Shown: in pieces, positions 20,204 through 23,400 of the stretch
Layout of the letters: every line of letters begins with the position of its first letter
How positions within the stretch are numbered: the first letter of the stretch is position 1
Source: Escherichia phage EP_H11
Reading direction: 5' to 3' (one strand)
Length of the DNA: 64,000 bases
Sequence record: OP688485
Notes under the pieces: model-generated
What the model saw: the letters and a program-made list of their open reading frames with translations, nothing else
Database searches by the model: none
Told to the model about the DNA's origin: nothing
Translations under genes and position numbers: made by a program

Positions 20204-21013
20204 ATGTACTTTACTGATAATATGATCGTGGGACTGATGATTGCTTATATCATCGGTGGGATCATTGTTTATCCGATTGCTGCCTACGTAACTGGCAGAT
20301 TTCGCATTAAGCATGGCGGTTACACAGTATTGGCTACGGTATTTTGGCCGTTAATTCCTTTCGTGGTCGTGGCAGTTATCATAACTAAACTGGTTGAAAT
20401 AGCGTGCACGAAAGGGACTACCTCCGCGATCTCGGTGAGAAACATGCCAATTAATTTCAGCATGCAGAGTCTTGAAGACTTTGTACCGGAGCATGGTAAG
20501 AACGTAGTAGTCTTCTATCACGAACGATTCTATTCACGAGTAGAGATGCTCCAAATGCAGGTAGAATTCCACTACCAGATGATAGATGGAGATGGTTGCC
20601 CAGTTCCTCAGTGGGCATGCTATGATAATCGCGACGACATACCGTTCGATAAGCCATTCATCTGGAAAGATAAGCAGGTTAAGTTCCTTACTCTGGATGA
20701 CTGTATGGAAATACATAATCTTCATCCCAAGCATCATTACCGCTACTGGTGGGTTAAGGACTGGTTCCTAACTGGTGGAGGAAATAGCCAGTTAAATAGG
20801 GAACAGCTGGCGGAGATGTCGTTAGGGATTATGAGTGCCGAACAGTTTAGTGCTGAACTGGATAAAGGATGTGCTGATCTGGAAGCTAAACGTATCTTGC
20901 GTGAATTAACTCGTGAATCCAGCACTGGATACTGCGAGAAGCATGCTACTCGCCAGTTGGGTAAAGACCTATGCGATGTATGTCGTATTGAACGTGCATT
21001 TATGGAGGGATGA
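20204..21013 (+). CDS. putative membrane protein with Cys-rich C-terminal domain
   Basis: N-terminal hydrophobic helices, C-terminal CEKH...CDVC. Confidence 0.5.
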   Translation: MYFTDNMIVGLMIAYIIGGIIVYPIAAYVTGRFRIKHGGYTVLATVFWPLIPFVVVAVIITKLVEIACTKGTTSAISVRNMPINFSMQSLEDFVPEHGKNVVVFYHERFYSRVEMLQMQVEFHYQMIDGDGCPVPQWACYDNRDDIPFDKPFIWKDKQVKFLTLDDCMEIHNLHPKHHYRYWWVKDWFLTGGGNSQLNREQLAEMSLGIMSAEQFSAELDKGCADLEAKRILRELTRESSTGYCEKHATRQLGKDLCDVCRIERAFMEG

Positions 21014-21669
21014 TGCGAATCTGGACCGAGGAGAACTCTATTCTGGAGTTTAGTGGAGAGTACCGATTCCTCTCTAACTTTTATCCTATTCCTATCGAGG
21101 ATAAGAATCCATATGGGAACGAGACTCTTCCTTCCCTTACTTACCCCAGTCTGGAGCATGCCTATCAAGCATCTAAGTCTCCATCACTAGCTCATCGTCT
21201 TATAATAGCTAGACTCCATACTCCTGGGGAGGCTAAGAGATACGGACGTAAGCTATCCATTACCGAATCGTGGAAGGAACAGCGAGTAGATGTAATGGAA
21301 CACCTACTCCGGATTAAATTCGCGAAAGGTGGGGAGCTAGCTCAAAAATTGATCGATACTTGGCCTAAGGAACTGGTCGAAGGAAATACCCACGGAGACT
21401 CTTTCTGGGGTATGACTCGTGAGGAATACAAGTCCGTCCTTACGGGTATTAACATGCTTGGACGACTATTGATGAAACTTCGGGAGGAGTTAATTATGGA
21501 ACAAATGACTAAGAAGACAGGATCGTTTGAGGAGTGGCATAAATTGCTGCACCAATACGCTCAGTCTCGTGGTGGTAGCGCTGCGGACGCCGAGGCTTGG
21601 CGGGATGATTACGATGAAGGTAAGACTCCTAAGCAGGCCTACGACGATGAGTGGGGCGAAGAAGACTAA
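21010..21669 (+). CDS. NADAR domain hydrolase (YbiA-like)
   Basis: FSGEYRFLSNFYP, EHAYQASK, RVDVMEHLLRIKF, THGDSFWG, LGRLLMKLREEL collinear with E. coli YbiA motifs as remembered. Confidence 0.85.
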   Translation: MMRIWTEENSILEFSGEYRFLSNFYPIPIEDKNPYGNETLPSLTYPSLEHAYQASKSPSLAHRLIIARLHTPGEAKRYGRKLSITESWKEQRVDVMEHLLRIKFAKGGELAQKLIDTWPKELVEGNTHGDSFWGMTREEYKSVLTGINMLGRLLMKLREELIMEQMTKKTGSFEEWHKLLHQYAQSRGGSAADAEAWRDDYDEGKTPKQAYDDEWGEED

Positions 21670-21677
21670 CCTATCTT

Positions 21678-21707
21678 AGCGCTCTTTAGGGAGCGCTATT
21701 TTTATTT
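21678..21707 (+). terminator. intrinsic terminator after NADAR gene
   Basis: AGCGCTC-TTTAGG-GAGCGCT followed by ATTTTTATTT. Confidence 0.75.
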
Positions 21708-21723
21708 AACGTTGGGAGTAATT

Positions 21724-21963
21724 ATGGATCAGCCTATCCAAACAGTAATTAACGCAGTTGGGAGCATGCAGATCGTGGGTTATGATACCTATGAGCAAGT
21801 AGCTCAAACAGTTAAACTTGATCCTCGCAAGAAGCGTCGTGGTCATCGTCAGGCAGCTAAGAGTTTGCTGCGTAATGGTGGGCTCTTCAATAACTACTCC
21901 TCACCAGGAACTACATTCTGGTGGGTTGCACAATGGCATCTTAAGAAGGCACGTAATGGTTGA
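21724..21963 (+). CDS. hypothetical protein
   Basis: ATG 21724 with GGGAG RBS. Confidence 0.4.
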   Translation: MDQPIQTVINAVGSMQIVGYDTYEQVAQTVKLDPRKKRRGHRQAAKSLLRNGGLFNNYSSPGTTFWWVAQWHLKKARNG

Positions 21964-22309
21964 AGATACTGGAATTCATGACGGACGCTGGGAAGAGCGA
22001 TATAACTCCGTACGGCAGGAGCTCGACACTACTAAGGCTAATCTGAGTAAGGCAAGAGTAGAGAATGCCGAAAACCGAGCTATGCATCACCGTATTATTC
22101 AGATGGCTATTGATGATGGCTGGACGGGTGATCATAATAGTAATGTTGAGGATGCAGTAAAATTCCTCTCTGGTAGAGAGCGTAAAGTAACTGCTCCTAA
22201 AGTACATTATACAGATCATATCACCGTAGGTAAGCCTTCCCCAGTGTATGATGCTGTTGAAGTAGATACATTATTAACCAGCCTAGGATACATTGTGGAT
22301 AAGGATTAA
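21956..22309 (+). CDS. hypothetical protein
   Basis: ORF 21818..22309 trimmed to internal ATG that abuts upstream stop. Confidence 0.4.
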   Translation: MVEDTGIHDGRWEERYNSVRQELDTTKANLSKARVENAENRAMHHRIIQMAIDDGWTGDHNSNVEDAVKFLSGRERKVTAPKVHYTDHITVGKPSPVYDAVEVDTLLTSLGYIVDKD

Positions 22310-22311
22310 TT

Positions 22312-22346
22312 CCGCCGTTTCTTACCCTCGAAAGGCTGTTAAATTG
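22312..22346 (+). promoter_or_regulatory. conserved early-block motif copy E
   Basis: CCGCCGTTTCTTACCCTCGAAAGGCTGTTAAATTG upstream of exonuclease gene. Confidence 0.5.
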
Positions 22347-22373
22347 TTGCACCTCAACTAATAAGGATAACCG

Positions 22374-23087
22374 ATGTCTACTAAGATGATGCCACACCAT
22401 CTGGCACCGAATAAACTGTTTAACCGATTCCTGTCATATCATGACTCCTATCACTGCGCAATCGACATCGAGACTGAGTATCTCGATTTTAAAGAGCCTG
22501 GGGTAGTTCTGTCTGTAGGTATGGTAACGATCGGTCCAGAGCATTACTCCCACGTTTATTTTACTATTGATCGTGAAGAATCTCTGGCATTGGGTATGAA
22601 GTCCGACCCTAAAGTAGTGGAGTGGCTCAATACCCTCCCGAAACCCGTCCGTGATGCCGCATATGCTAATCCGGTATCTGTTGACGAAGCTCTGGATATC
22701 ATCGAGGATTACGTAGCTAAGGTATTACAGGACACTGGCTGCGAGATGTTGAACTTTATCGGTAACGCACCGGAGTTCGACCAAGGATTCCTGGATTGGT
22801 ACTTTAAGGCCAAAGGGCGTAAGACTCCGTTCCTTCACTGGATGAATCGTGACTTCCGCACTCTGGCTAGTCTGCAGCTAATCTCTTTCGATGAACGCCG
22901 CATGATTAAAGAAGAACTGCGTAGCCAGCACGAATCTATGTCTGACCACCATGCTCTGTTTGATGCTATGCTGGAAGCTAAGACCTGGGTTCGCACCATC
23001 AACCGAGTAAAAGAACTGCAGGATCTGGAGCATGAAGTAAACACCATGATCGCTCTGCAGGGTAATTCTGTTGAGGATGAAGAGTAA
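22374..23087 (+). CDS. DEDDh-type 3-prime to 5-prime exonuclease (DnaQ-like)
   Basis: Exo I motif AIDIETEY and Exo III motif HHALFDAMLEA with appropriate spacing. Confidence 0.7.
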   Translation: MSTKMMPHHLAPNKLFNRFLSYHDSYHCAIDIETEYLDFKEPGVVLSVGMVTIGPEHYSHVYFTIDREESLALGMKSDPKVVEWLNTLPKPVRDAAYANPVSVDEALDIIEDYVAKVLQDTGCEMLNFIGNAPEFDQGFLDWYFKAKGRKTPFLHWMNRDFRTLASLQLISFDERRMIKEELRSQHESMSDHHALFDAMLEAKTWVRTINRVKELQDLEHEVNTMIALQGNSVEDEE

Positions 23088-23400
23088 GCTCTGCCGCGTA
23101 GTTAATATACGTACCAATCCTAATTATGATCTGTATGTTGGGAGAGGTACGTTATTCGGGAATAAGTGGAGCCATAAAGATTTACCTAACGCTATCAATG
23201 TAGGTTCCCGAACATTAGCTATCGCGAAATACCGACTATGGTTCCACCAGCAAGTAAAAGATGGCCATATAAGCATCTCATACCTGCGGACTCTGAAGGG
23301 TAAGACTCTGGGATGCTCCTGCTTACCATTACCATGTCATGCTCAAGTAATAGCTGACTTCGTTAATTCATTACCAGACGAAGACTCCGCTCTTTCGTAG
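23077..23400 (+). CDS. DUF4326-like small protein
   Basis: VVNIR...YDLYVGRG...GNKW...LKGKTLGCSCLPLPCHAQVI pattern as recalled for DUF4326; function unknown. Confidence 0.45.
   Translation: MKSKLCRVVNIRTNPNYDLYVGRGTLFGNKWSHKDLPNAINVGSRTLAIAKYRLWFHQQVKDGHISISYLRTLKGKTLGCSCLPLPCHAQVIADFVNSLPDEDSALS

Follow-up and report, generated by a model that had tools for sequence, protein, structure and literature searches.

Several phage proteins of the NADAR family are known to defeat the bacterial DarTG1 defence system. AdfN (gp30.3) of phage T4 removes ADP-ribose from DNA, and is both necessary and sufficient to overcome DarTG1 (Johannesman, Carlson and LeRoux 2024, PMC11257639). The unrelated NADARs of the T5-like phages Bas32 and Bas33 and of Bas60 restore plaquing of sensitive phages on DarTG1, and when expressed alone both NADAR-Bas32/33 and NADAR-Bas60 neutralise DarT1 in uninfected cells; AdfN, by comparison, works only in a T-even context and fails to neutralise DarT1 when cells are not infected (PMC11257639). 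In vitro, ADP-ribosyl-guanine is hydrolysed by E. coli YbiA, by the T4 protein and by other NADARs (Cihlova et al., PMC11125620). A second phage family, DUF4326, has been placed in the rhodanese-phosphatase superfamily, is found fused with or next to domains of the SLOG, Macro and NADAR kinds in DNA viruses, and is predicted to process phosphates attached to the ribose in derivatives of ADP-ribose (Iyer, Burroughs, Anantharaman and Aravind 2022, PMC9503650). Here we analyse a locus of Escherichia phage EP_H11 (sequence record OP688485; the whole stretch of 64,000 nucleotides is referred to as the window) in which genes for a NADAR protein, a DEDDh exonuclease and a DUF4326 protein span 2.4 kb, all on the + strand. 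An earlier assessment made from the letters alone (the sequence-only reading) had proposed that these genes may define a co-functioning counter-defence or DNA-repair module. Our analysis leans instead, with somewhat better than even confidence, towards three functionally separate items lying in the DNA-metabolism arm of the phage, one of which is a probable anti-DarTG1 NADAR with an unexplained C-terminal extension.

The NADAR gene (21010..21669, +) encodes a protein of 219 aa, in which a YbiA-type domain is followed by a C-terminal helical extension. Pfam NADAR (PF08719) matches residues 17-161 at E 7.4e-27 (95 bits; cut-off, 35.1), and phmmer searches with the protein lead to E. coli YbiA (2B3W) and to the NADAR of P. 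nicotianae in its structure with bound ADP-ribose (8BAU). The AlphaFold2 model (pLDDT 85.5) resembles the same two structures in Foldseek searches (2B3W, E 2.1e-8, TM 0.71; 8BAU, E 6.3e-7, TM 0.65). Profile and predicted fold thus bear out the family named in the sequence-only reading, although the match is confined to the domain and does not run across the length of the protein as had been stated. The residues of the P. nicotianae enzyme described as touching ADP-ribose or as required for its hydrolysis (E43, K50, K75, R79, E125, D130 and W133; Schuller et al., PMC11543638) all have equivalents here (E49, K56, K76, R80, E124, D130 and W133). Among 38 homologs there is no variation at E49, K56, E124, D130 or W133 and almost none at K76; the window protein has R80 as well, although this position does not figure in the list of conserved columns for those homologs.

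Among the phage NADARs that have been tested, that of Bas32/33 is the closest homolog of the window protein. The latter is 43.7% identical over residues 11-161 (E 2e-22) to the NADAR of phage Bas33, also named HildyBeyeler (PMC11619597). Like NADAR-Bas32 (from IrisVonRoten) and NADAR-Bas33, it stands alone in a phage, no DarT being encoded beside it, and it carries the same conserved E-x6-K and D-x2-W-G elements. Those are T5-like proteins of ~140 aa that lack the ~60-aa phrog_519 extension seen here, whereas the window protein comes from an unrelated myophage lineage and its activity is predicted from its sequence. T4 AdfN is likewise a phage NADAR, one that strips ADP-ribose from DNA and defeats DarTG1. 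T4-type NADARs have His at the position of P. nicotianae E125 (PMC11543638); the Glu124 of the window protein places it, by sequence, in the YbiA-like group and not in that of T4 gp30.3, a distinction drawn from this one residue as PMC11543638 describes it for T4-type NADARs. YbiA is its best match in both sequence and structure among solved structures and has the same Glu, but is encoded by a chromosomal gene that has been linked to the hydrolysis of riboflavin intermediates and to a LexA-controlled operon (PMC11125620).

The extension itself, residues 157-219 (window 21478-21666), matches phrog_519 at E 7.6e-20. This family is known as a free-standing protein of ~64 aa in Ackermannviridae and some Klebsiella phages, and in the AlphaFold2 model of the window NADAR it forms a low-confidence helical appendage. 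The best 120 NADAR homologs are mostly 137-180 aa long, and among these only the 96%-identical metagenomic homolog P0170 covers the full length of the query. The genomic context of a free-standing homolog, in Kuttervirus dinky, is uninformative: it lies behind the major head gene, in a group of small genes of unknown function from which DUF4326 is absent. In the close relative Escherichia phage vB_EcoM_IME392, the NADAR ortholog (5912-6571 of that sequence, L001, corresponding to window 21013-21669) contains an in-frame stop at codon 156 in window numbering (LLM*LREEL), where both the window protein and P0170 have Lys. This stop would remove the end of the last NADAR helix together with the C-terminal extension, and could mark either a pseudogene or a sequencing error. 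A truncated AdfN allele of phage RB69 has been reported to be inactive (PMC11257639).

Taken with the tested homolog NADAR-Bas32/33, these data make it plausible, and well supported by homology, that the window NADAR is a DarTG countermeasure, as the sequence-only reading had suggested; the kind was already established in 2024, and the claim is not new in that respect. In a DarTG1 host, DarT1 would attach ADP-ribose to the N2 of guanine in phage DNA and so block replication. The NADAR is predicted to act as an orphan, antitoxin-like DNA ADP-ribosylglycohydrolase, cleaving the N-glycosidic bond to free ADP-ribose and restore guanine. The term orphan reflects the absence of any ART or DarT family among the + strand open reading frames (ORFs) of positions 1-28.5 kb. 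NADAR-Bas32 works alone, and therefore no partner is required for a NADAR of this type. The window protein thus adds one more candidate to the phage NADARs that defeat DarTG1, with a slightly different architecture and from a poorly sampled lineage of E. coli myophages.

The arrangement of predicted regulatory elements suggests that the NADAR gene and its two neighbours lie in different transcription units. The sequence-only reading had placed each gene behind its own promoter-like motif. A scan for sigma-70 consensus sites did not rise above chance (19 sites, 22.7 expected), and the idea of a sigma-70 promoter for each gene was dropped in favour of a phage-specific element of ~40 nt, CCGCTCTTT-(7-11 nt)-AAAGGCTGTTAAAnTGT. 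The strict form of the core, 19 bases long, matches at 6 places, every one of them on the + strand, whereas 0.03 matches would be expected by chance; a looser scan finds 7 + strand copies of the core (positions 907, 6068, 13025, 18220, 19617, 22332 and 23407), with a start codon 20-35 nt downstream of each. In sequence the core is similar to an extended -10 element (TGtTAAAcT), and it is conserved in IME392 and in a more distant relative, L091, where it occupies the same intergenic position though the L091 DUF4326 is only 82% identical. The motif is probably a promoter class of this lineage. The copy nearest upstream of the unit that ends with NADAR (..CGCTCTTT..AAAGGCTGTTAAtGTGT) lies at 19597..19634 (+). 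Another (CCGCCGTTT..AAAGGCTGTTAAATTGTTG; 22312..22349, +), with 0 mismatches to the 19-base core, ends 25 nt before the DEDDh start, and a further copy with 0 mismatches (CCGCTCTTT..AAAGGCTGTTAAACTGTTG; 23387..23424, +), the one whose position is kept in L091, starts the next unit after DUF4326. No copy stands directly before NADAR or DUF4326, whose starts both overlap the end of the preceding gene, so that the statement about promoter-like motifs holds for the exonuclease gene and fails for the other two.

An intrinsic-terminator-like hairpin, with a 9-bp GC-rich stem followed by UUUUUAUUU, begins 8 nt after the NADAR stop (21677..21708, +). Its predicted folding energy is -14.1 kcal/mol (z -3.2), and 1 of 200 shuffled sequences folds as well. 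With this terminator in place, and with one copy of the motif ahead of DEDDh and another behind DUF4326, NADAR and the DEDDh/DUF4326 pair appear to belong to different transcription units. The first unit reads as the motif at 19597, small ORFs, a membrane-type protein of 269 aa, NADAR as the last gene, and the terminator. The 269-aa protein (20204..21013, +) has a hydrophobic N-terminal region and a stop that overlaps the NADAR start (ATGA); no family exceeded threshold in profile searches with it. Two small ORFs, of 79 aa (21724-21963, +) and 117 aa (21956-22309, +), lie between the units, and family searches with these gave no matches. The second unit would consist of the motif at 22312, DEDDh and DUF4326. 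The third reads as the motif at 23387, a basic protein of 74 aa, an RyR-domain protein, a dUTPase and a second terminator-like hairpin (24540..24567, +; 12-bp stem, -15.8 kcal/mol, z -4.1), after which comes a dCTP deaminase-like gene.

A comparison across phages shows that the three genes do not generally travel together. In Acinetobacter phage Ab1-TPeters, one of the distant relatives of the window phage and the deciding case for the exonuclease, NADAR lies at 40.1 kb and DUF4326 at 44.35 kb, and the DEDDh ortholog (30.8% identity) at 70.1 kb, 26-30 kb from the other two and in the same synteny as in the window: an endolysin-like gene and a dCTP deaminase gene follow it, and then tail genes on the other strand. 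Because of this synteny, the DEDDh exonuclease looks like a lineage gene with a fixed place, relative to which NADAR and DUF4326 are mobile. In Ab1-TPeters the slot after DEDDh is occupied not by DUF4326 but by a NUDIX-domain protein (L003 8692-9330). NUDIX and DUF4326 both belong to the set of proteins predicted to process ADP-ribose or nucleotides (PMC9503650), and the exchange could be a functional replacement or a coincidence.

We then surveyed linkage in 160 IMG/VR viral loci, 80 seeded on NADAR and 80 on DUF4326, covering 10 kb on each side of the seed. All three families occurred within 10 kb at 1 of the 160 loci (L074). An Rv2179c-like exonuclease, the family to which the window DEDDh protein belongs, was found at 3 of the 80 NADAR loci, where its distance varied (3.0, 5.7 and 8.7 kb), and at 1 of the 80 DUF4326 loci. 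DUF4326 was present at 6 of the 80 NADAR loci, or 5 of 79 when only independent loci are counted (L158 and L161 are the same phage). In all of these loci it was on the same strand and 0-3.7 kb downstream of NADAR, and nowhere else in the surveyed 20 kb; uniform placement would give such positions with a probability of ~0.2^5 = 3e-4. The loci share no further genes with the window. The order NADAR then DUF4326 recurs with gaps of 1.4 kb in the window, 1.2 kb in L074 and 3.8 kb in Ab1-TPeters. The link between NADAR and DUF4326 is thus real and recurrent, although it is found in a minority of cases and was already predicted in 2022 (PMC9503650). A three-gene module of NADAR, DEDDh and DUF4326 is not supported by these surveys. 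The proposal of a co-functioning module consequently finds no support for the exonuclease, which sits in another unit, is dispersed in Ab1-TPeters and lacks tight linkage in the 160 loci, and finds partial support for DUF4326, given its recurrent fusion or adjacency to NADAR.

The exonuclease gene (22374..23087, +) encodes 237 aa and was correctly recognised in the sequence-only reading as a DnaQ-like DEDDh protein with DIETE and HHALFDA motifs. It matches the Pfam Rv2179c-like 3'-5' exonuclease family (PF16473) at E 4.9e-19 (69.1 bits against a cut-off of 27), and its DEDDh signature is complete, with D31 and E33 in AIDIETE, D136 in PEFD, and H192-x4-D197 in DHHALFDA. Weak matches to RNase T were found in the PDB, and the protein falls in phrog_255, annotated 'exonuclease'. 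In family and motifs it therefore resembles the DEDDh 3'-5' exoribonucleases RNase T and M. tuberculosis Rv2179c, while its similarity to RNase T itself is very low (24.3 bits against the equivalog model TIGR01298, below the cut-off of 246.2). Homologs occur in only 44 phage records, where the NADAR domain reaches 456 and DUF4326 reaches 2013, and in the two other (small) phages checked they lie amid replication and recombination genes. In the literature we found nothing relevant on phage Rv2179c-like exonucleases as anti-defence proteins. The protein looks like an ordinary exonuclease of the lineage and a bystander to NADAR. Judging from motifs and synteny, it would be a lineage-conserved 3'-5' exonuclease of the replication and nucleotide block, acting on nucleic-acid 3' ends independently of NADAR, and we advise against counting it as a member of an anti-defence module.

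The third gene (23077..23400, +; start at 23071 or 23077) encodes 107 aa and overlaps the DEDDh stop by 11 nt; its product is 100% identical to a protein recorded for EP_H11. Its designation as DUF4326-like is confirmed by Pfam (PF14216, E 3.1e-17, 63.4 bits against a cut-off of 25) and by the presence of the family-invariant residues G28, N29, C80, C82, P84, C87 and H88 (GN...C-x-C-x-P-x2-C-H). The family is very common in phages: phmmer returns 2549 cluster representatives at E <= 0.001, and tblastn finds it in 2013 of 50,697 phage records, or ~4% of sequenced phage genomes. The AlphaFold2 model is of high confidence (pLDDT 92.3), but Foldseek finds no significant structural neighbour among solved structures, so that the published assignment to the rhodanese-phosphatase superfamily was not reproduced by structure searches. 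A comparison of the DUF4326 and NADAR profiles was negative (0.2% probability), and PADLOC gave no match to the protein.

DUF4326 keeps varied company. Among 30 multidomain DUF4326 proteins, 8 carry SLOG, 3 NADAR, 2 Macro and 2 a DNA methyltransferase. Among 19 long DUF4326 ORFs in the IMG/VR loci, 5 carry mSLOG and 2 are fusions to family A DNA polymerase. Vibrio phage 1.031.O, a distant relative of the window phage by its portal protein, encodes a fusion of DUF4326 and NADAR. The window protein belongs to the same family as the set described in PMC9503650, and the association of that set with NADAR is reproduced here through fusions and neighbourhoods; it differs in being encoded on its own, 1.4 kb downstream of NADAR, and in its coupling to an exonuclease gene. 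The immediate neighbours in the 80 DUF4326-seeded loci are a heterogeneous set of genes for DNA and nucleotide metabolism, and include DUF488, 5'-3' exonuclease, SbcCD-type proteins, thymidylate synthases, methylases and dCMP deaminase. In a T4-like phage, DUF4326 lies between td (thymidylate synthase) and nrdA and overlaps the nrdA start; in RHph_TM39 and L092 a dCMP deaminase gene directly follows it, and in both the window and L091 it precedes the dUTPase and dCTP deaminase genes. Location in dNTP-synthesis clusters is a second habit of DUF4326, and a stronger one than its link to NADAR. Outside close relatives, a candidate for a further exonuclease-DUF4326 pair was rejected, since in Rhizobium phage RHph_TM39 the 'exonuclease' that stands upstream of DUF4326 shares no homology with the window DEDDh protein and falls in no Pfam family. 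The two polymerase fusions (L014 9902-12529 and L077 9995-13207) combine DUF4326 with the family A DNA polymerase and its 3'-5' exonuclease domain. These are the only loci with DUF4326 ORFs long enough for such a fusion, and they suggest that some DUF4326 domains, at least, have a role linked to DNA.

The recurrent partners of DUF4326, fused or adjacent, are thus N-glycosidase and ADP-ribose-binding domains (NADAR, SLOG and Macro), and the protein most likely handles a ribose-phosphate moiety, either the product or substrate of such a glycosidase or a nucleotide; in the window it is translationally coupled to the exonuclease. It is tempting to speculate that DUF4326 serves as a second enzyme for N-glycosidases such as NADAR and SLOG, a Cys-dependent phosphatase or Cys3-His metal protein that acts on the ribose-phosphate left over or released, so that in this phage lineage NADAR and DUF4326 would form a two-step counter-defence; we regard this as a doubtful proposition at present. 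Within this two-step idea, the coupling to the exonuclease hints at action on DNA ends. If true, it would provide the first biochemical role for the DUF4326 family, including in T4-like phages where the gene sits between td and nrdA. Regardless of its function, the quantified linkage between NADAR and DUF4326 is the useful residue of the proposed module, for a family that is widespread and whose role has so far only been predicted. The window phage, Ab1-TPeters and the fusion protein of the Vibrio phage offer starting points for its study.

Several observations weigh against the interpretation of the locus as an anti-DarTG1 NADAR beside two functionally separate genes, and some of them lend themselves to other explanations. 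YbiA and the T4 NADAR are active in vitro yet do not rescue cells from DarT1 toxicity (PMC11125620), and because of this homology is no guarantee of an anti-DarT1 phenotype. The window protein also differs from DarG1-type antitoxins: PADLOC finds no DarG-like match, only a 22-bit match to the candidate PDC-M42C, and no DarT is adjacent. The C-terminal extension remains unexplained, and NADAR scores 73.6 bits against TIGR02464, the equivalog of the riboflavin-intermediate N-glycosidase, 0.1 bit short of the cut-off of 73.7. As to the neighbours, NADAR lies within 10 kb at just 1 of the 80 DUF4326-seeded loci, L074, and therefore the NADAR link concerns a minority of DUF4326 genes. In L074, NADAR, DUF4326 and an Rv2179c-like exonuclease stand within 3.8 kb, in an order different from that of the window, and the overlap of an Rv2179c-like gene with DUF4326 is found again in L091; given this conserved overlap, DEDDh and DUF4326 may be functionally paired. 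These last two points, together with the placement of the genes within 2.4 kb on one strand and the fusions of DUF4326 to family A polymerases (2 of 19 long ORFs) and to DNA methyltransferases (2 of 30 multidomain proteins), are what might be expected if all three proteins jointly repaired phage DNA, with NADAR stripping ADP-ribose and the others trimming or cleaning ends or adducts. We nonetheless consider joint repair quite unlikely, given the terminator between NADAR and the other two genes, their scattering over 30 kb in Ab1-TPeters with NUDIX in place of DUF4326 after DEDDh, the sparse and irregular occurrence of the exonuclease in both sets of surveyed loci, and the sufficiency of NADAR-Bas32 alone (PMC11257639).

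A different target has also been proposed. NADAR and DUF4326 could act on soluble NAD-derived immune signals or toxic ADP-ribose derivatives, produced by TIR, Thoeris-type or other NAD-consuming defences, instead of on DNA, with NADAR cutting the N-glycosidic bond and DUF4326 removing the ribose-linked phosphate. This is what has been predicted in print for the NADAR, SLOG, Macro and DUF4326 proteins of phages (PMC9503650), and it accords with SLOG, NADAR and Macro as the fusion partners of DUF4326. All phage NADARs tested so far, however, act on ADP-ribosyl-guanine in DNA and counter DarTG1 (PMC11257639, PMC11125620), the soluble substrates shown for NADARs are limited to riboflavin intermediates, and the DUF4326 fold was not confirmed by our structure searches; we judge this explanation unlikely. 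The near-threshold TIGR02464 score, the YbiA-type Glu124 (PMC11543638) and the embedding of DUF4326 in the dNTP-synthesis clusters of many phages would, in turn, suit a role in housekeeping of the nucleotide pool and none in defence. In this case a YbiA-like NADAR would destroy reactive phosphoribosylamino-pyrimidine intermediates and, with DUF4326 and alongside dUTPase and dCTP deaminase, shape or sanitise the precursors of phage DNA. Damage control in the riboflavin pathway is not something that a lytic phage obviously needs, YbiA too hydrolyses ADP-ribosyl-guanine in vitro (PMC11125620), and the closest tested phage homolog of the window NADAR has a defence-evasion phenotype (PMC11257639), which leaves housekeeping very unlikely in our estimation. 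We accordingly retain the anti-DarTG1 NADAR, the lineage exonuclease and the DUF4326 protein as separate items.

The wider setting of the locus is that of an E. coli myophage of the poorly sampled EP_H11/IME392 lineage. The DNA of the region is 93% identical to that of IME392, and searches with the portal protein reach distant relatives only: Ab1-TPeters, Ralstonia phage RP13, the Rhizobium RHph phages and Vibrio phage 1.031.O. The + strand to ~28 kb is devoted to DNA and nucleotide metabolism, including an NAD-dependent ligase, a PolX-like protein, a dUTPase and a dCTP deaminase-like protein, and is followed by structural genes on the - strand; the label 'early gene cluster' given in the sequence-only reading is a reasonable inference from this gene position. 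Downstream of DUF4326, the basic 74-aa protein (23439-23663, +) is the first gene of its unit and is followed by the RyR-domain protein (23663-24043, +; Pfam RyR, E 5.8e-13) and the dUTPase (24040-24510, +; Pfam, E 2.4e-35), an order (23439..24510) also found in L091. The RyR-domain gene thus keeps its position between DUF4326 and dUTPase in that relative. The dCTP deaminase-like protein (24781..25404, +; Pfam DCD, E 1.1e-23) scores 82.7 bits against TIGR02274 (cut-off 92.8) and, at 45% identity to its Ab1-TPeters counterpart, provides a syntenic anchor between the two phages.

Other genes of the + strand deserve mention. The NAD-dependent DNA ligase (6110-8053) and the PolX-like (DNA polymerase beta-type) protein (5272-6045) are both common to Ab1-TPeters, and the NAD+-dependent ligation step of the phage is relevant to NAD-depleting defences. 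A protein of 168 aa (54-560, +) matches Pfam Acb1, an anti-CBASS 2H phosphodiesterase, just above the cut-off (27.5 bits against 27, E 2.9e-6) and has two H-x-T motifs (NHCTL and PHITL); phmmer found no homologs of it among solved structures. This protein is a more direct anti-defence candidate than the DEDDh exonuclease. The remaining + strand ORFs of positions 1-28500 include PinA-like (Lon protease inhibitor), phosphopantetheine-binding (ACP-like), MptE-like and LysM proteins.

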